The notes beneath the pieces were generated by a model. That model had not been told where the DNA came from, did no database searches, and saw only the letters and a program-made list of their open reading frames with translations. Shown here piece after piece: positions 1,759 to 59,739 of a DNA stretch of 64,000 nt. Every line of letters starts with the position of its first letter. The first letter of the stretch is position 1. This stretch comes from Candidatus Lambdaproteobacteria bacterium RIFOXYD2_FULL_56_26. GTDB taxonomy: Bacteria > SAR324 > XYD2-FULL-50-16. The stretch lies in the NCBI GenBank assembly GCA_001783715.1, contig MFNF01000061.1:6722-70721 (forward strand). The letters are read 5' to 3'. A program made the position numbers and the translations under genes.

Positions 1759-3876
1759 TTGGCTCTGGTTATGGGCGAGGTAAAGTTTTTCCCCCAACAG
1801 CACCCAATTTTTCCGGCCAAAACCAAAAAACCGTTCGGTTTTTGGCCGATTTTGACCGCATTTCTTGTGGTCCCTTTGGGGCAATCTGCTAGCCTTGAGG
1901 GCATTGATCCCTACCTTTCCAAGACCAAAAGCCAAATCGCCTGGTTTTTTTGCATGCGTGAACAAGAAACGGAACGTACTACCCGGGAATACCTGACTAG
2001 AAGGTTGCAGGAAGCCGCTTTGGCGATCCAATCCTTGTTGCAGTTGCAGTCCGCTTTGGTGGAAATCCTACCGGTTCTGCCTCGAGAGTTGGGCGAACGG
2101 CAAGAGGCCCTCCGGGCCAAGGCCAAGCGGTTTCTAAATCAGTCTCCACCTGCCTCCCCGGCCCCCAAACCCCTGGTTCCCACTCGGGTGGCAGTCCTGG
2201 CCGAGGAACTGGCGGAAACCTTTGGTCCGGTCTTGGAACGGAAGGGAATGTTCCTGTCTTTGAAGGTGGATCAGGAAATCACCCTACCTTACCCCCAAGA
2301 GTCCCTTTCTTGCCTCTTGCACCTGCTGTTGGAAAATGCGGTCCGGCTCACCTTTGGGGGAGCGATCCTCCTGGTGGCCAAGCTTCAGGACGACAAGGTG
2401 CTGGTAGAAGTGGCGGACCAAGGGGCGGGGCTGGACCCCAAACAGCTCAAGAGGCTGGAACTGGGGCTCGACCCTGTTCCTTCGGACACCTATGGCTTGG
2501 TCTTGGCCAAAGCGCTGGCCGAAGAAATGGGTGTCGGCTGGGTGATTTCCTCCGAACCGAACCAGGGCACCCGAGTGAGCCTTTGGTTTGGTACGGCCCC
2601 TTGGCCCAAACTGCCGCCCTTGCCCCCCCTTTCGGCCAAGGAAAAGCCCCCGGGCGGTCCGCAGCCCAAGGTCTTGGTGATCACCCAAGAGGAACGGACC
2701 TTAAACCTGATGAAGCTCTACCTGCAACAAAGGTTCGACAGTCTGACCGCCTCCAGCGGGCAGATGGGGCTGGAGTGGCTGGAACAAGAAAAGGTGGACT
2801 TGATCCTGGTGGACCTTTCGATGACCGGCCTGGACGGGCTGGATGTGCTCGCCGAGGTCCGGGAAAATTACGGCAAACGGGAATTGCCGGTGATTTTTTT
2901 GGTCCACGAAGAGGAAAGCCCCCAGTTTGGAAGATTGTTGCGTCTCGGTGGGAACGACTGCCTAAAAAAACCGGTAAACCCCGACGAACTGTTGGCCAAA
3001 CTGGAATTTCACTTGGCCCAGAAGACCCACTTTTTGGAATTGACCCAAAGGGGGGACAACCTGGAACAGCAACTTTCCTTGCGGGAGTGGCAGCTCAGCT
3101 TGCTGGCCAAGCAGGTCCCCCTGATGGGGCAGGTGGGCTTGCCCTTGGGGGCTCCGGTCATTGGCTTTAGTCCCAATTTTTTGATCCAATACCTCAGCCC
3201 CGAAGCTTTGTTGTTGCTCGATGGCAGTCTGCTTGAAGCGTTAAGCCAGCCTTTAAGCCAATACCTACCCTTGGATTGGCCCTGGCTGTTCGAGCAGATC
3301 GGCGAGTTGGGCCCCAAGATGGGACTGGTGCTGTTTACGGCCAAGGAAAAACGCTCCTTGTGGCTCTTTCGCAGCGAAAACGGTGGAGCCTTGGCCTTTG
3401 GGCCAGAACGGCTGGAGCTGCCCGAGCCTCCTTTTGTGAGTGCCCAAGTCTTTCGGGTCAAAAAAAGACAAAAAGGCAAGGACAGTTTTGGCCCCTTGGC
3501 TTACCAGTTGGACTTCCCCAAGGTGGGTCCCAAGGCGGTCTCCCCGGCGAGGGTGAAGATGCCCGAATTGATCGCCGAATTGATGGGAGCCTGTTTGGCC
3601 TTGTGGGAGCGGAAAACCCGGGCCGACAAGGTGGAGCTGGCCGACCAGAGTGGTCTTTGGATTGCGGCGGCGGACAAAAAAGGTACCTACCGGACCAAAA
3701 CCCTGGACCGTTACCTGGACCCCCACAAGGTCCCCAAGCACCCTCGGGTCCAGACGGTTTTGCAGACCGCCTACTTTGTTTGCCAGAGGTTTGCCAAGGA
3801 GGAACCCAAGGAAGTGGCCCGGATCGAGGCCTTGGCCCGGAGGTTGGAGGTGAGCTTGGGGCAGAAACGGCCTTAA
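1759..3876 (+). CDS. GHKL-ATPase + receiver-domain signalling protein (hybrid kinase-like; no clear HisKA)
   Basis: HATPase_c-like block (LLENAVRL...DQGAGLD...GLVLAK) followed by a REC domain (KVLVITQEE...DLILVDLSMTGLDG...KKP). C-terminal ~300 aa unassigned; true start uncertain. Confidence 0.55.
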   Translation: MALVMGEVKFFPQQHPIFPAKTKKPFGFWPILTAFLVVPLGQSASLEGIDPYLSKTKSQIAWFFCMREQETERTTREYLTRRLQEAALAIQSLLQLQSALVEILPVLPRELGERQEALRAKAKRFLNQSPPASPAPKPLVPTRVAVLAEELAETFGPVLERKGMFLSLKVDQEITLPYPQESLSCLLHLLLENAVRLTFGGAILLVAKLQDDKVLVEVADQGAGLDPKQLKRLELGLDPVPSDTYGLVLAKALAEEMGVGWVISSEPNQGTRVSLWFGTAPWPKLPPLPPLSAKEKPPGGPQPKVLVITQEERTLNLMKLYLQQRFDSLTASSGQMGLEWLEQEKVDLILVDLSMTGLDGLDVLAEVRENYGKRELPVIFLVHEEESPQFGRLLRLGGNDCLKKPVNPDELLAKLEFHLAQKTHFLELTQRGDNLEQQLSLREWQLSLLAKQVPLMGQVGLPLGAPVIGFSPNFLIQYLSPEALLLLDGSLLEALSQPLSQYLPLDWPWLFEQIGELGPKMGLVLFTAKEKRSLWLFRSENGGALAFGPERLELPEPPFVSAQVFRVKKRQKGKDSFGPLAYQLDFPKVGPKAVSPARVKMPELIAELMGACLALWERKTRADKVELADQSGLWIAAADKKGTYRTKTLDRYLDPHKVPKHPRVQTVLQTAYFVCQRFAKEEPKEVARIEALARRLEVSLGQKRP

Positions 3877-51874: not shown

Positions 51875-52781
51875 AGGTCGGTTTGGGTGGCGAAGATCTG
51901 TGACAAAGCCCCGTTGATTTCAGGGTAGCTAAAAACAAAACCGGATTCCAACAATTTATGGGGCAATACCTTTTGGCTGCCCAAGACCATCTCGGCCCGT
52001 TCCCCCAGGATCAGCCGGACCAAAAATGCGGGGACAAACAAAAAACTTGGCTTTTTGAGGCTTCGGCCCAAGGCCTGGGCAAACCCCTTGGCCCGGATCG
52101 GGTTGGGGGCGGTTAAGTTAAAGGGGCCTGACAGACTGGGGTCTCGGCTCAGAAGCTCCAGCGCTCCCAAATGGTCAAACAGATGGATCCAACTCATCCA
52201 CTGCCTGCCGTTGCCCAAGGGGCCGCCGACATAGGCCATAAACGGGGGGACCATCTTTTGGAGGATTCCGCCCTTGGGACCCAGCACCAACCCGGTCCGA
52301 GCCAAGACCACCCGGACCCCCAAAGCTTGGGCCGCCAAAGCTTCGGCTTCCCAAGCGGCACACAATTGGGCCAAAAAACCGGTCCCGGCTGGGTGGGGTT
52401 CGGTCATTTCCTCTTCCGCATCAAAGGGATAAAACCCAATGGCCGAGCCCTGGACCAGGGTTTGGGGCTTGACCTCTTGGGCTCCCATCCAGGTCACTAA
52501 CCTTTTTGTTAGTCCCACCCGGGATTCCAAAATTAACGCCTTTTGTTCCTCGGTCCAGGGTTTGTCCACGATCGGTGCCCCGGCCAGATTAAAAACCCTG
52601 TCGATTGGCCCTGAGATTTGGCTTAGCTCGGTCACAAATTCAACGGAATCCCCAAACAGTGCTTTGGCTTGGGAAAGGCTTCTGACCAGACAAAGGGGCT
52701 TTTGGGACCGACTCAAACGTCGGGTCAATTCTTGGCCGATAAAGCCGGTTGCGCCTAGAATCAGGGTTCGTGGTTTCATGG
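51871..52781 (-). CDS. TIGR01777-family NAD-dependent epimerase/dehydratase (YfcH-like)
   Basis: Rossmann motif ILGATGFIGQEL at the N-terminus and DUF1731-like C-terminus. Confidence 0.75.
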
Positions 52782-53038
52782 ACACCTCAAGTTCCCCTAA
52801 ACTGGTAGCTTGAACCCCCTTTGTCAATAAGCCCCCCTGCAAACGGCATGATTCTCTCTTTCAATGGAACAACTTAGGGAAAACGCCCTATTTGCAAGGG
52901 GCCATTGTTTCGGTAAGCAATGGCCATGTTCTCCAAGGGTTGCAAGGCGAAGAGAGCACCCCCCGGCCTTGGGTCAAGGTCGGGGGCAAATTCACCGCCC
53001 CAAGGACTTAAACCAACCGCAAAAACAGGGAAGAAAAG

Positions 53039-54057: not shown

Positions 54058-56667
54058 ATGAGCCTGAACCTAGAACGGTTCACCCGTCCCGCTGAAGAAG
54101 CGATTTACTTGGCCCACCGGATTGTCTCGGAAAACCGACAACAAAAGATGGAGGCGGAACACCTGCTTTTATCGCTGCTGCGGCTCGGTGAAGGGGGGCT
54201 CAACGAAATTTTGGGCCAGCTCAAACTGGACAAAAAAGCCCTGGAAGAAGAGCTGCAAAGGTACTTGGAAAAACTGGACCCGGCCACCAGTCAAGGCAAG
54301 GATGTTTACCTCTCTTATTCCTGCGAGCAATGTATCCGCAAGGCCGAGTACGAGGCCGACCGGATGCGGGACGAATTCCTGGGTCCCGAACATTTGGTCC
54401 TGGGCATCCTGGCCAACACCGGCACCGAAGCCTCGACCATCCTGCGGGGCCAAGGGCTCGACCTCAAAAGCCTGACCAAAACCATCGAAGCCTTCCGGGG
54501 CGGCAAGCGGATCACCAGCCGGGGCGGCAACCCGGCGGAGCTGGAAAATGTCAACCTCTACTGCCGGGACTTTGTGGCCCTAGCTCGGGAAAACAAGTTT
54601 GACCCGGTGATTGGCCGGGACGAGGAGGTCCGCAGGGTGATCCAGGTGTTGTCCAGACGGAGCAAAAACAACCCGGTCCTGATCGGCGAGCCAGGGGTCG
54701 GCAAGACGGCAATCATCGAAGGCCTAGCCCAGCGAATCTACCAAGGGGATGTGCCTGAAAACATGAAAAACGCCAGTCTGATGGCCCTCGACTTGGCGGC
54801 TATGGTAGCAGGGGCCAAGTACCGTGGGGAGTTTGAAGACCGGCTCAAGAGCCTGCTCCGGGAGATCGAAACCGCCGGGCGGCACATCATCCTTTTTATC
54901 GACGAACTGCACACTCTGGTGGGGGCGGGGGCCTCCGAAGGGGCTCTGGATGCCAGCAACATGCTCAAACCGGCCTTGGCCCGTGGGGTCTTGCGTTGTG
55001 TCGGGGCAACTACCATCAATGAATTCAAAAAATACATCGAAAAGGACCCGGCCCTGGAACGGCGGTTCCAGCAGGTCCTGGTCAAGGAACCAACGGTAGA
55101 GGCTTGCATCGGCATCTTGCGAGGCCTCAAAGGCAAATACGAGGTCCACCACGGGGTGCGGATCAAGGATTCGGCCATTCTCGCTTCGGCCAAACTGGCG
55201 GCCAGGTACATCCCGGACCGTTACCTGCCCGACAAGGCCATTGACCTGATTGACGAGGCGGCCAGCAAGGTGCGCATTGAGATCGACTCCATGCCCACAG
55301 TGATCGACCAAGCGGAACGCAAGGCCTTGGGCCTAGAGATCGAACGGGCGGCCCTCTCCAAGGAAGAGGACTCTGAGTCCCGGCAGCGAACCAAGGAACT
55401 GGACCAGGAGATCCTGCGGTACCGGAAACAGGCAGAGGAGCTGAAGTCCCAATGGCGGTCCGAACGGGAGTTGATCAGCAAGATCAGGGCGCTCAAAGAA
55501 GAGATCGAACGGACCTTACAAGAAGAACTGGAAGCCCAACGGGCGGGGAACCTGGAGTTGGCCGCCAAACTCAAGTACGGCACCCAGGACGCTTTGCAAC
55601 GGGAATTGGCCCAGGCCAACAAGTTCCTGACCGATTCGGACCAAGGCCGTCTGCTCAAAGAGGAAATCGACGAAGAGGACATCGCCCAGATCGTCAGCAA
55701 ATGGACCGGCATCCCGGTTTCCCGGATGATGATGGACGAACAGGTCAAACTGCTTAACATGGAGCGGGCGCTTTCCCAAGGGGTGATCGGCCAAAAGCGG
55801 GCGCTCTTGGCGGTCAGCAACGCCATCAGAAGGGCAAGGACCGGCATCCAAGACCCCAACCGCCCCTTGGGCAGCTTTATCTTCATGGGGCCAACCGGGG
55901 TGGGGAAAACCGAGTTGGCCAAAAAGCTGGCGGCCTTTTTGTTTGACGATGAAAAAGCCATGATCCGCTTGGACATGAGCGAATACATGGAAAAACACTC
56001 GGTCAGCCGTCTGGTCGGGGCCCCTCCAGGGTACACCGGCTATGACGAGGGGGGCATCCTGACCGAGGCGGTCCACCGCAAACCCTATTCGGTGCTGTTG
56101 TTTGACGAAGTGGAGAAGGGGCACCCGGAGATCTTTAACGTCCTGCTCCAGATCTTGGACGAAGGGATCTTGACCGACTCTCGAGGCATCAAGGTGGACT
56201 TCAAGAACACCATCGTGATCCTGACCACCAACCTGGGCAGCGAGGTGATCCTAAAAACCTTCCAGGAGCAAAAGAAGGTCCCGCCGTTGCTGGCCCGAAA
56301 AATCCTCTTGGGCCACTTCCGGCCCGAACTGCTCAACCGGGTGGACGAGGTGATCGTCTTTGAACCCTTGACCTTGGAGTCCATCGAAAAATTGGTGGAG
56401 TTGCAGGTAGGCAAACTGAGCGACCGCCTGGAAGCGGGGGGAGGCACCCAGCTCAAGGTCAGCCCCGAAGCCCAGAAATTCCTGGCCCAACGGGGCTTCG
56501 ACCTGGAGTTTGGAGCCCGGCCACTCAAGCGGCTCTTGCAACGGGAACTGGAAGATGTGCTGGCCTACAAGATTTTAGACGGCACCATCCACCCCGGCGA
56601 CCAAATCGAAGTCCGCCTGAACGCCGACCAACTTACCTTCCACCGAGTCAAATCGGCGGAGGGGTAG
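54058..56667 (+). CDS. clpB: ATP-dependent chaperone ClpB
   Basis: 869 aa: Clp_N repeats, NBD1 ([10 protein letters not shown]), long coiled-coil M-domain, NBD2 ([12 protein letters not shown]), sensor-2. Confidence 0.95.
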
Positions 56668-56821
56668 CGTTCCTATTCAAATTTAATGTCAATTGGATAC
56701 AATATTTATGCGGTCAAGCGCATCTTGTGGATCGAAGCCAGGAGGGGTGGGCTTGAAGTCCTTACTCTCCCTCTGCAGGCTGTACTCCTTGCTTTGAAAC
56801 TCCCGCAAAGATTTTAGATCA

Positions 56822-57682
56822 AGTTTCTGTTGGCGCTGCAAGGTCATATCCTGCATAGAGCCAATTTCATAGCTGCTAGGAGGTTTTCTATGACGAGAAC
56901 CTTCGCTGAGAACCAGTGGGAAAAATGTATGCGGTTTTGTCCCCGGACCCTCGTGCCTACGCAGGCCACGAAGCGGACTGCCGATGTTTTCTTAGAAGGG
57001 GTCTTGTGGCTGGCCCTCAGCGAGGGCAATGGCGGCTACTACCTGAAAAATATGGCAAATGGAACAGCGTTTACAAACCGGTGGCAAGCCCACGGGGTTT
57101 TTGAGCGGCTCTTCTCCCAATTCAACTCCGAGGCGGATCTGGAGAACCTGCGGATCGACAGTACGGTGCTGCGGGCTCATCCTTGCTCCGCCGGGGCTTT
57201 AAAAAAGTAGCCCACCCCAAAAAGCTCCGCTTTCCGGGGACCCCGGCGGTGGACAGTCTGCCCATGCGTTAGGCCGGCTTCACCACTAAGGTTCATATCG
57301 CCGTGGACGGACTGGGAAACCCTTTACGCTTTATCCTAACCGGTGGGCAAGTGCATGATGTAACGCAAGCTTGTTCGCTGGTTGAGGGATTCAAGGCCCA
57401 GGCTGTACTGGTGGACAAAGGGTATGCATCCTTTGAGTTTAGGCGACAAATCGAAGAGTAGGGGATGCTGCCGGTGATTCCCCCCCAAAAACCAACCAAA
57501 GGGAACCTTGGAAAACCGATTTTGTGCGTTACAAAGAGCGGCATTTTGTGGAGTGCTTCATCAATAAAATAAAACACTTCCGCAGGGTCTTTTCAAGATT
57601 CGAGAAGCTGGCAGACCGATACTTGGCCGTCCTCTACTTCGTCGGGACCCTCATCTGGCTCCGATGAATGTCAACAGAACCT
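56822..57682 (+). mobile_element. degenerate IS5-family (IS427-group) insertion sequence
   Basis: orfA (56889-57210) ends at slippery A AAA AAG (57202-57208); orfB DDE fragments (HIAVDGLGNPLRF...DKGYAS) interrupted by an in-frame TAG (~57460) and a further frameshift; C-terminal ...KHFRRVFSRFEKLADRYLAV...WLR*; IR-R atgtcaacagaacc at 57669-57682; degenerate IR-L near 56822. Confidence 0.7.
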
Positions 57683-58652
57683 AAAAGGAAAAACCCACCG
57701 AAAGCAGCGGGAGTTTTCGGGCTTCTTCCTGATCCTCGCTGATTTGAAGCAGGGTCAGGTTATACAAAATGTCAAACCAGGTATGTAGGGCCATGGCGCT
57801 AACCAGATCGGTCTTGCCGATACTGGGCTGATAAACATAGCCCTGGTAGGCACCCAGCAAAAAGGCACCAGCCGGATTAGCCGTGGGCGCACTGCTGTAG
57901 TGAAGAGCCCCGAATAGGGCCGCCGCTGACCAGATGGCCGTATGGCGCGCTGATTCGCTACCCCACCCCGAATTGGACAGAGATTCAAAAATACTTTTCT
58001 GAAGGCTCCCACGGAACATGGCTTCCTCACCAATCCCCACGGGGTAGAACATTAGAGGGGTTTGGCGGCGCTGCTTCTCGGGAGTGAAGCCGCCGTAATA
58101 TTCGTCGCGGATCACCACTTGCCGCTGTACGGCCCCGCTTTGCAAAAAGGCGTAGGTAGCGCCGATACCGAGCCAAAACATCCAATTGCCTCCGAATTGG
58201 TCGATGCGGAGTGGAGCAAGAGCGGCCTGCCAGGTTTCGGGATTTGGTTTGCAATCATGGGCGTTCAAATCCCAAAAGGAAAAGAAACCCAAATTGAGCT
58301 GCCAAGTGAAGGCCATGTATTCGTCCCAGGTCTGCCGGTTCCAGCGGCGAATCAGTTCGATCTTTCCACTGGTGCTTTCCTCTGCGGGAATGATTTCAAA
58401 GCGCTCGTTCATAGGAATCAGGTCGCCGGAATGCCGCAGATCAGCAATCTGCTTGGTCAAGGCCCAGCGGCTCCCCCCAATGACCAGCGCCTTGCCATAC
58501 TGCCCGGAACCCACATACCCCGTCCCAGGCAAGAAAAATTCGCCCCACGCAGAAGTTGTACATCCCGCACGTAAAGTGGCAGGAAGCATCAGAGCCAATA
58601 AAAGAAGTACCGTTTTCAAGTATTCCTGTAAGTTATTGGGTTCTGTTGACAC
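57681..58652 (-). CDS. CPBP-family (CAAX/Abi) intramembrane metalloprotease
   Basis: Motif 1 EExxxR (GIGEEAMFRGSL), motif 3 FxxxH (ALFGALHYS), multiple TM helices; ORF exactly fills the space between two facing IS ends; start codon non-ATG or internal. Confidence 0.6.
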   Translation of the reverse strand: MSTEPNNLQEYLKTVLLLLALMLPATLRAGCTTSAWGEFFLPGTGYVGSGQYGKALVIGGSRWALTKQIADLRHSGDLIPMNERFEIIPAEESTSGKIELIRRWNRQTWDEYMAFTWQLNLGFFSFWDLNAHDCKPNPETWQAALAPLRIDQFGGNWMFWLGIGATYAFLQSGAVQRQVVIRDEYYGGFTPEKQRRQTPLMFYPVGIGEEAMFRGSLQKSIFESLSNSGWGSESARHTAIWSAAALFGALHYSSAPTANPAGAFLLGAYQGYVYQPSIGKTDLVSAMALHTWFDILYNLTLLQISEDQEEARKLPLLSVGFSF

Positions 58653-58800
58653 TCACCGGAGCCAGAAGAGGGTTCCGATGAAGTAGAGGAAGGCCAAGTA
58701 CCGGTCCCCCAGCTTCTCGAATCTTGAAAAGACCCTGCGGAGGTGGTTTATTTTGTTAAAGTCTTTGAAATGGTTATCCAAAAACGAATCACGGTTTACG
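58637..58800 (-). mobile_element. partial, inverted second copy of the same IS (right-end ~130-160 bp only)
   Basis: 58637-58760 is ~85% identical to the reverse complement of 57560-57682 (ggttctgttgacactcaccggagccaga...cttctcgaatcttgaaaagaccctgcgga), encoding ...KHFRRVFSRFEKLGDRYLAFLYFIGTLFWLR*. Confidence 0.65.
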
Positions 58801-59061
58801 ACGAAATGGCCAAGGAATTGAATCAAACCTATTGCTTTTTCTTACAGTGAGGAGATTGAAAAGAAGTAACCCCACTGGAGATCGTGGAAAAAACATAAGC
58901 TTGATCGAGTTTTTTATACCTATCGTTTGGACTGGAGCTAAGAGTTGAAACCTAGTTTAAGTGAATCAACTCGGTAAGGGCCAAGCCCTCGCTTCGGTGG
59001 GGGCTTATTTGGCGATTTGTCACATGTTTGAAGCCTTGAGCAAACGGCTTGTACGCACTCT

Positions 59062-59739
59062 TTACTCCGAAAAAAACTCCACCGACCGGATGAAGACGGC
59101 GGTGTTGCCTTCGGTTTCACGGGTGTCGAACTCGAAGCCGAAGCCGATGACCGGGGGCATGGGTTTGCCGAAACGGGCTTGGAAGCTTACGGGCAGTTCC
59201 ATTTCGGTGGTCAGATCCTGCCCGACCGGGGCCTTGCAGGGAAGGCAGATGTAGCGGCCAGCTTGGGTGTAATAGAGCCCTTTGTACCAAAGGCCCTGGG
59301 TGTCTTGGTCGTTGAGGAAGGCCCCCAGGAAGTAGGGGACCTTGGGCAGGATCAAAGAATCGCTTTCCTGCAATTCTCGGCCAAACGCCACCAAGAACAT
59401 GGCATTTTCCCGGCGCACTTCCTTGTTCCAGCTAGCCCCTTTGGGGTAGGCAGTGACACCCCAAACCACCTTGACCCGTTTGGCTCCGGGAATGTCCCTT
59501 CCCAAGGCCATTCCACCCAAAAGGTTGGGGGTCAACTCAATGTACAGGCGGCCTTGTTTGATCTTGGGCTTGATCTTCTCCCGGGCATCCTCTTGCAGGG
59601 CAAAGTTGTTCATGTGCAGGAACCGGGCTGCGTCCCCATCGGGGGCTTCGGAGAAGTCCAACTTAAAAAGCGATTCGGCCAAGAGGGGGGAAGCAAATAG
59701 GAACAGTCCGGCCAAAAGGGGCAAAAGCTTGTGTTTCAT
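59062..59739 (-). CDS. hypothetical exported protein
   Basis: 225 aa with signal peptide (MKHKLLPLLAGLFLFASPLLA); no confidently recognised domain. Confidence 0.4.
   Translation of the reverse strand: MKHKLLPLLAGLFLFASPLLAESLFKLDFSEAPDGDAARFLHMNNFALQEDAREKIKPKIKQGRLYIELTPNLLGGMALGRDIPGAKRVKVVWGVTAYPKGASWNKEVRRENAMFLVAFGRELQESDSLILPKVPYFLGAFLNDQDTQGLWYKGLYYTQAGRYICLPCKAPVGQDLTTEMELPVSFQARFGKPMPPVIGFGFEFDTRETEGNTAVFIRSVEFFSE

Follow-up and report, generated by a model that had tools for sequence, protein, structure and literature searches.

Members of the IS427 group of insertion sequences (ISs) are 832 to 865 bp long and possess inverted repeats (IRs) of 13 to 21 bp, a 2-bp target duplication, and two overlapping open reading frames (ORFs) with a conserved frameshift motif (Dziewit et al., PMC3281130). 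Composite transposons, such as Tn10, Tn5, and Tn6097 of Paracoccus, consist of two inverted copies of one IS, with the same end of each copy facing inward and a passenger between them. We analyzed a 64-kb stretch of DNA (the window) from Candidatus Lambdaproteobacteria bacterium RIFOXYD2_FULL_56_26, in which a degenerate IS427-group element and an inverted terminal remnant of a second copy bracket a single gene for a CPBP/Rce1-like protease between clpB and a gene encoding a 225-amino-acid (aa) protein. All positions given below are those of the whole window, and strands are given as read on its plus strand.

We favor, at a probability of roughly 0.6, the interpretation that IS-mediated relocation of a gene left the block between clpB and the 225-aa gene behind as a fossil. 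An IS427-group element would have come to bracket a single CPBP cistron in inverted orientation, right ends innermost, giving a composite-transposon-like unit that would have arrived or been assembled at the AT-rich 3' junction of clpB in an ancestor of this Lambdaproteobacteria population. Later decay would have introduced stops, frameshifts, and deletions into copy 1, worn its left repeat, and left copy 2 with only its last 121 bp; the CPBP gene would have stayed intact, presumably as a functional resident. The anatomy of the locus, the family assignment, the pseudogene state of the IS, the lack of the block in relatives, and the intact CPBP gene are observed directly; we infer that the IS copies moved the gene and did not merely land beside it. 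The locus shares with composite transposons the two inverted copies of one IS, the inward-facing identical ends, and the enclosed passenger. In contrast to those systems, one copy here has shrunk to 121 bp, each outer end is either degenerate or gone, and no flanking duplication is present. Also unlike those systems, the passenger is a single housekeeping-type membrane protease with no selectable trait, the ISs have additional spacer DNA on their outer sides, and no second occurrence is known. Candidatus Lambdaproteobacteria are poorly sampled, and the locus adds to them an extinct IS427-group lineage that has no name; it would also provide a clean case of how a single gene settles at a new site after the ISs beside it have decayed. 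The IS is new but defunct, its group is well known, and the architecture is familiar; this is ordinary biology with little significance beyond annotation.

IS remnants and the gene between them

IS copy 1 is an 859-bp pseudogene at positions 56823 to 57681 on the plus strand (nhmmer, 1,076 bits). Matches to transposase families were obtained only with a conceptual translation that bridged its stops and frameshifts. This orfA-orfB translation (56890 to 57667) matched the NCBIfam IS5 family transposase model NF033580 over positions 8 to 258 of 258 (E = 7e-48; 163 bits against a cutoff of 110) and the Pfam family DDE_Tnp_1 (PF01609; E = 1e-14). The orfA remnant (56890 to 57210, plus strand; 106 aa) retains the first catalytic Asp in the motif RIDST, and the orfB remnants (57208 to 57667, plus strand) retain the second Asp in VDKGY and the Glu of the Y-2-R-3-E-6-K signature (YKERHFVECFINKIK). 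In an alignment with 10 intact homologs, D90, D175, E222, and YKERHFVECFINKIK all fall in invariant columns. These results bear out the sequence-only reading of this DNA, which had proposed a degenerate IS5-family, IS427-group element with DDE transposase blocks in its orfB.

A scan with a 24-mer common to both window copies identified a third copy at another locus, positions 1850 to 2757 of a Joint Genome Institute (JGI) metagenome contig (L016). The window and this contig are homologous from exactly 56823 to exactly 57681, which fixes the IS boundaries independently of the earlier reading. The L016 copy possesses perfect terminal IRs (15/15 bp; GGTTCTGTTGACATT), is flanked by TA on both sides (CTTA-IS-TAAT), and spans 908 bp, or about 870 bp without a tandem duplication described below. 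In copy 1, the right IR (ATGTCAACAGAACC; 57668 to 57681, plus strand) is intact and ends on the base with which the complement of the CPBP stop codon begins. The repeat had thus been correctly recognized from the sequence but placed one base too far to the right, at 57669 to 57682. The left IR (GTTTCTGTTGGCG; 56823 to 56835, plus strand) is degenerate, with 10 of 13 positions equal to the consensus GGTTCTGTTGACA. As an exact 13-mer, GGTTCTGTTGACA occurs within the 64 kb only at the right ends of copies 1 and 2.

By these features, copy 1 appears to fit the IS427 group in length, IRs, and transposase. Like IS1248, ISPaes1, ISPpa6, and the single-ORF variant ISPha1, the element measures about 860 bp and has terminal IRs of 13 to 15 bp. 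It also shares with the group a DDE transposase with the Y-2-R-3-E-6-K signature and has an A-rich heptamer at conserved G-A-L-K-K codons between two reading frames, and the TA on both sides of the better-preserved L016 copy may represent the group's 2-bp duplication. It differs from described members in that all three recovered copies are pseudogenes and in that an extra segment of 38 nt (or 77 nt) follows the A-run in this lineage, whose nearest homologs are single ORFs. Among 5.8 billion proteins, the best intact transposases were about 45 to 51% identical over their full length, and the highest partial-length match reached 55%. Since no intact transposase exceeds 51% identity over its full length, the element would be a new, unnamed IS. 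The nearest annotated plasmid proxies were IS5-family and ISLpl3-family transposases (38 to 41% identity), and the best annotated plasmid matches were two-piece (frameshifted) IS5-family transposases, such as that of ISLpl3. Weak tblastn matches of transposase N termini at 52487 to 52840 were rejected, being antisense to the epimerase gene and lacking any motif.

The second copy is a right-end remnant of 121 bp at 58639 to 58759 on the minus strand, inverted relative to copy 1. A repeat search recovered the two as inverted arms (57563 to 57684 and 58636 to 58757) of 122 nt that are 89% complementary and lie 951 nt apart, and an nhmmer profile built from both copies detected the remnant with an E value of 5e-37; tblastn matches covered transposase residues 226 to 260 only. 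The same profile found no further IS match in the spacers or elsewhere in the 64-kb window. Past 58759, identity to the copy 2 side drops to 53 to 59%, whereas copy 1 and the L016 copy remain 85% identical, which limits the remnant to about 121 bp; a possible extension to about 58815 shows chance-level similarity. An inverted terminal remnant had been anticipated here, but its proposed end at 58800 was generous. The alternative that the 121-bp stub belongs to a different repeat family is contradicted by the L016 alignment and by comparison of the remnant with copy 1.

The facing right ends of the two copies are 957 bp apart and enclose one complete CPBP gene (57681 to 58619 on the minus strand, or 57684 to 58619 without the stop; 312 aa). 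Its TAG stop codon (57683 to 57681) shares a base with the right end of copy 1, and 19 bp separate its likely start from copy 2. The ORF matches Pfam PF02517 (Rce1-like/CPBP) with an E value of 1e-10 (42.3 bits against a cutoff of 22.4), in agreement with the proposal that a CPBP protease ORF fills the gap between the facing IS ends.

This geometry can also be reached without a composite unit. A single resident IS beside the gene could have attacked a nearby target by replicative transposition within the same molecule, giving rise to copy 2, inverting the intervening segment, and leaving both right ends facing it. The product of such a Shapiro-type inversion is L-IS-R, an inverted segment, and R-IS-L, exactly the arrangement observed here. 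The IS427-group member IS1248 forms cointegrates (PMC3281130), indicating replicative transposition in the group. Against such an origin, the gene's arrival at the locus would be left unexplained, and the diagnostic inverted target duplication, whose two halves would flank copy 1 on its inner side and copy 2 on its outer side, would have been lost with the deleted outer end of copy 2. We consider this route improbable. We give hardly any credence to two bolder ideas: that IS427-group elements have a dedicated means of capturing trimmed cistrons, whether by replicative intramolecular inversion or by start-codon read-out from the right repeat, or that the 122-nt arms serve as a recombination switch that flips the CPBP gene.

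Decay and the frameshift motif

Copy 1 carries in-frame TAG codons at 57270 to 57272 and 57459 to 57461, a further frame change near 57500, and an 11-nt deletion past 57275. Within orfA, losses of 1 nt and 8 nt throw the conserved motif WRLLPxxYGxWNSVYKRF off frame but introduce no stop, and owing to these lesions a 19-codon stretch inside the orfA remnant lies off the ancestral frame. The sequence-only reading had listed one in-frame TAG and one extra frameshift; both are real, but the orfA losses and the 11-nt deletion, which it did not list, make the damage heavier than it had supposed. Nothing at the locus is still able to transpose.

The L016 copy is also a pseudogene. Over the last 121 nt, copy 1, copy 2, and the L016 copy are mutually 89 to 90% identical, which, together with the lack of a close intact transposase, points to an old, extinct transposition burst. 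We also observed that three independent metagenome assemblies (L006, L005, and L004) end at window positions 56920, 56991, and 57016, in the left third of the IS. Ends of this type are the usual symptom of a repeat and are consistent with further similar copies in the community.

The slippery heptamer A AAA AAG is present in the orfA phase at 57201 to 57207 on the plus strand, directly 5' of the orfA stop codon (TAG, 57208 to 57210), as read from the sequence; it had been assigned to the correct phase but to positions 57202 to 57208. Its counterpart in L016 is A AAA AAA, where the -1 frame is open. Because the window copy has lost one A as well as the 11 nt, a -1 slip there would run through 24 codons in the wrong frame, the TAG among them. 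The closest intact homologs are single ORFs that read ...AGALKKxGGQxxQALGRSRGGF... and lack the segment that follows the A-run, which comprises 38 nt in the window (57207 to 57244) and 77 nt in L016 (2245 to 2321). This 38/39-nt segment occurs once in the window copy and is tandemly duplicated in L016, and its deletion (38 or 77 nt) recreates exactly the single transposase ORF of the homologs. A candidate stimulatory hairpin within the segment 3' of the heptamer folded no better than shuffled sequences (z of -0.3 and -0.9). Considering the single-ORF homologs and the ORF restored by removal of the segment, we regard programmed -1 frameshifting in this IS lineage as plausible only.

Origin of the block

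Two metagenomic relatives (contigs L011 and L014), found via the 225-aa neighbor, encode ClpB proteins that are 78 to 79% identical to that of the window and keep the gene order queA-ASL-epimerase-HU-HhH-clpB on one side and 225aa-queD-queE-DAGK-pyrH-tsf on the other. The sequence-only reading had raised the possibility that relatives retain the clpB-queD region without the insert, and both do: clpB and the 225-aa gene are convergent and overlap by 28 bp, with neither an IS nor a CPBP gene between them. In a nucleotide comparison, homology to the relatives breaks at about 56664 and resumes at about 59055, so that the block measures about 2.39 kb and is larger than the IS-bracketed unit. The 2.39-kb block (about 56665 to 59055) is thus lineage specific, and all contigs with an identical ClpB represent the same population and have the same structure.

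The only close CPBP homolog among 5.8 billion proteins (P0002; 53% identity) sits in a different operon of a relative, 222aa-FA_hydroxylase-CPBP-EamA (contig L007, 8546 to 11907), where an ATGA start/stop overlap joins it to the FA_hydroxylase-family gene. This different location supports the relocation we propose. The contig carrying P0002 resembles those of relatives L011 and L014 in GC (guanine-plus-cytosine) content and comes from the same samples. The 53% identity falls within the 51 to 79% range of syntenic orthologs. Because this divergence is like that of vertically inherited neighbors, relocation or a similarly distant transfer fits as well as foreign acquisition, and we hold relocation within the lineage to be as likely as foreign acquisition. 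The proposal of an acquired cargo gene trapped between IS remnants is thereby supported as to cargo and remnants, but "acquired" may mean relocated.

The relatives also allow an opposite polarity, in which the CPBP gene ancestrally stood next to clpB, the shared ancestor of the two relatives lost it by deletion, and the ISs are incidental. L011 and L014 are sisters of each other (ClpB 88% identical) and so represent one outgroup clade only, and the divergence from P0002 lies in the ortholog range. An exact 2.4-kb deletion would, however, have had to regenerate an in-frame clpB tail that overlaps the neighbor gene by 28 bp. In addition, translational coupling ties the relative's homolog to another operon, no stretch of the window deviates more in composition than the block, and IS ends abut both ends of the gene. 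We find an ancestral position of the gene very improbable.

Remnants of the operon partners (FA_hydroxylase, the 222-aa protein, EamA, and LytTR) were sought and none was found in the window, which argues that the spacers flanking the ISs are not debris of the donor locus. Likewise, the loci of the relatives contained neither IS traces nor traces of the operon partners. The 225-aa neighbor was considered as a homolog of the operon's 222-aa protein and rejected, the two being nonhomologous. Scans of genome contigs with the CPBP and 225-aa alignments gave no match among the GTDB representatives, which do not include this lineage.

In composition, the 2,394-bp block has a GC content of 0.515, compared with 0.566 ± 0.019 for equal-sized windows, and is the lowest in the whole stretch. 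The deficit is concentrated in the spacers and the copy 2 stub. The left spacer (56665 to 56822, about 155 bp), which begins where the alignment with L011 and L014 ends, has a GC content of 0.445 (z of -2.4); the right spacer (58760 to 59055, about 300 bp), which ends where that homology resumes, at the stop of the 225-aa gene and the ancestral clpB tail, has one of 0.433; and the copy 2 stub has one of 0.473. IS copy 1 (0.533; z of -1.1) and the CPBP gene (0.546; z of -0.7) are closer to the window's average, and the CPBP gene alone is only mildly GC poor. Its GC content at third codon positions (0.61) is low-normal relative to about 0.72 in its neighbors and nearer to the 0.52 to 0.61 of the relative's genes. 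The claim that the whole region is visibly AT-rich therefore stands for the block, but not for the CPBP gene itself. Searches of both spacers against Pfam, Rfam, IS profiles, and plasmids returned no matches.

Several observations weigh against a relocation by the ISs. The outer IS ends do not bound the block: unassignable DNA of about 155 bp (left) and 300 bp (right) separates them from the conserved flanks, which falls short of a clean composite-transposon insertion. Of the outer ends, that of copy 2 is gone and that of copy 1 has a degenerate IR. Copy 1 lacks an intact target-site duplication, being flanked by CAA on the left and TAA on the right (AA versus TA), and copy 2 offers a single end. 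Target duplications, which the sequence-only reading had suggested might mark the outer boundaries, were absent from those of both the block and the IS. Without an intact duplication and with the outer end of copy 2 deleted, transposition as a unit is unverifiable, and the loss of that end also takes away the evidence that would separate a composite unit, later insertions, and intramolecular inversion. Searches of protein and contig databases turned up neither a second IS-CPBP-IS unit nor a further copy of the CPBP gene. Finally, with two relatives that are sisters, parsimony cannot polarize the change, and its direction is judged from the IS signatures, the composition, and the implausibility of an exact deletion that recreates an overlapping gene pair.

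The spacers also bear on a further account, in which the gene came first by another route and the block is what decay has left of a larger insertion, for example, an islet acquired by recombination. Two copies of a then-active IS would later have inserted independently at TA-rich sites just outside the CPBP cistron, and a deletion would have truncated one of them. AT-rich sequence outside both copies and a block exceeding the IS-bracketed unit speak for this order of events. The IS family duplicates TA and lands in AT-rich sequence, as in L016, and the stop/terminator and ribosome-binding-site regions of the CPBP gene are such AT-rich sites. This account, however, needs two independent insertions 0 and 19 bp from the ends of a 936-bp gene, both of them with the same IS end pointing at the gene. 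That the three copies are equidistant in sequence agrees with a single burst, yet it does not favor one model over the other. On balance, we view later, independent IS insertion as possible but rather unlikely, and we retain IS-mediated relocation as the preferred interpretation.

The CPBP gene and annotation of the locus

The alignment with P0002 extends from the signal peptide to the final residue, which indicates that the CPBP gene of the window is complete. Homology with P0002 also favors the TTG at 58619, preceded by AGGA, as its start; the longer ORF from the GTG at 58652 begins inside the IS repeat. The true start is thus likely to be TTG 58619 and not GTG 58652. An exact lookup of the 323-aa ORF gave no match because gene callers had picked other starts. 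We also noted that the IS right repeat ATGTCAACAGAACC (58639 to 58652, minus strand, in copy 2) holds an outward-reading start codon. In L016, a 122-aa ORF (2742 to 3110, plus strand) with the sequence MSTEPN... begins in the right repeat, and GTG 58652 of the window gives VSTEPN... in the CPBP frame.

The CPBP subfamily is rare: an exhaustive profile search of 1.84 billion proteins recovered only about 59 representative clusters. Of 25 subfamily members, 24 match PF02517. CPBP/Rce1-like proteases are defined by the motifs EExxxR, FxxxH, and HxxxN/D (PMC11980579). The window protein contains EExxxR (E198-E199...R203), FxxxH (F236...H240), and HxxxD/N (H279...D283), each in predicted helices, and in the subfamily alignment it keeps all invariant and near-invariant family residues. 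An AlphaFold2 model built from 25 sequences, which shows these helices, reached a predicted local distance difference test score (pLDDT) of 89.8. No fold or sequence match to the protein was obtained in the PDB, and it scored below the cutoffs of all named NCBIfam CPBP equivalogs, including MrtJ and MrtC. Together, these features suggest that the cargo is probably an intact, functional member of a rare CPBP subfamily and a predicted glutamic protease.

Relative to the CPBP/Rce1-like family at large, the subfamily is distinguished by an N-terminal half of about 190 residues, an invariant Cys just past the signal peptide, the motif PGxGY, and a C-terminal tail of the form PLxxxxFxF. A second Cys is near-invariant, and in nearly all members the PLxxxxFxF tail closes the protein with a terminal Phe. 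This tail resembles an outer-membrane beta-signal, though the protein is predicted to be polytopic and helical. Coupling of P0002 to the FA_hydroxylase-family gene hints at a lipid-related function of the subfamily. As a rare and uncharacterized group, the subfamily might merit its own study.

On the left of the block, clpB occupies 54058 to 56667 on the plus strand, with a stop codon (56665 to 56667) that is supplied by the left spacer. The block replaced the last 13 or so ClpB codons (56647 to 56667), and the protein has 869 aa, compared with 877 aa in the relatives. The ancestral ClpB tail, ...S(P/E)KNSTD, persists past the block at 59064 to 59087, preserved by its overlap with the 3' end of the 225-aa gene (59062 to 59739, minus strand), beyond which lie queD and queE.

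Public gene calls on identical contigs place a 55-aa protein (56689 to 56856, minus strand) and a 106-aa protein (56890 to 57210, plus strand; 8833 to 9153 in contig L001) in the block. The 55-aa call is a spacer/IS junction without a family match, and the 106-aa call is the corrupted orfA; both are annotation debris. Corrections to the annotation would therefore remove these two calls as IS or spacer debris and place the CPBP start probably at TTG 58619. A consensus scan upstream of the CPBP gene found no sigma-70-like promoter. A consensus scan also gave a terminator-like hairpin followed by a T-run at 57694 to 57711 (minus strand); the counterpart codons of P0002 form none, and in the window this hairpin sits in the last CPBP codons and runs into the stop/IS junction.

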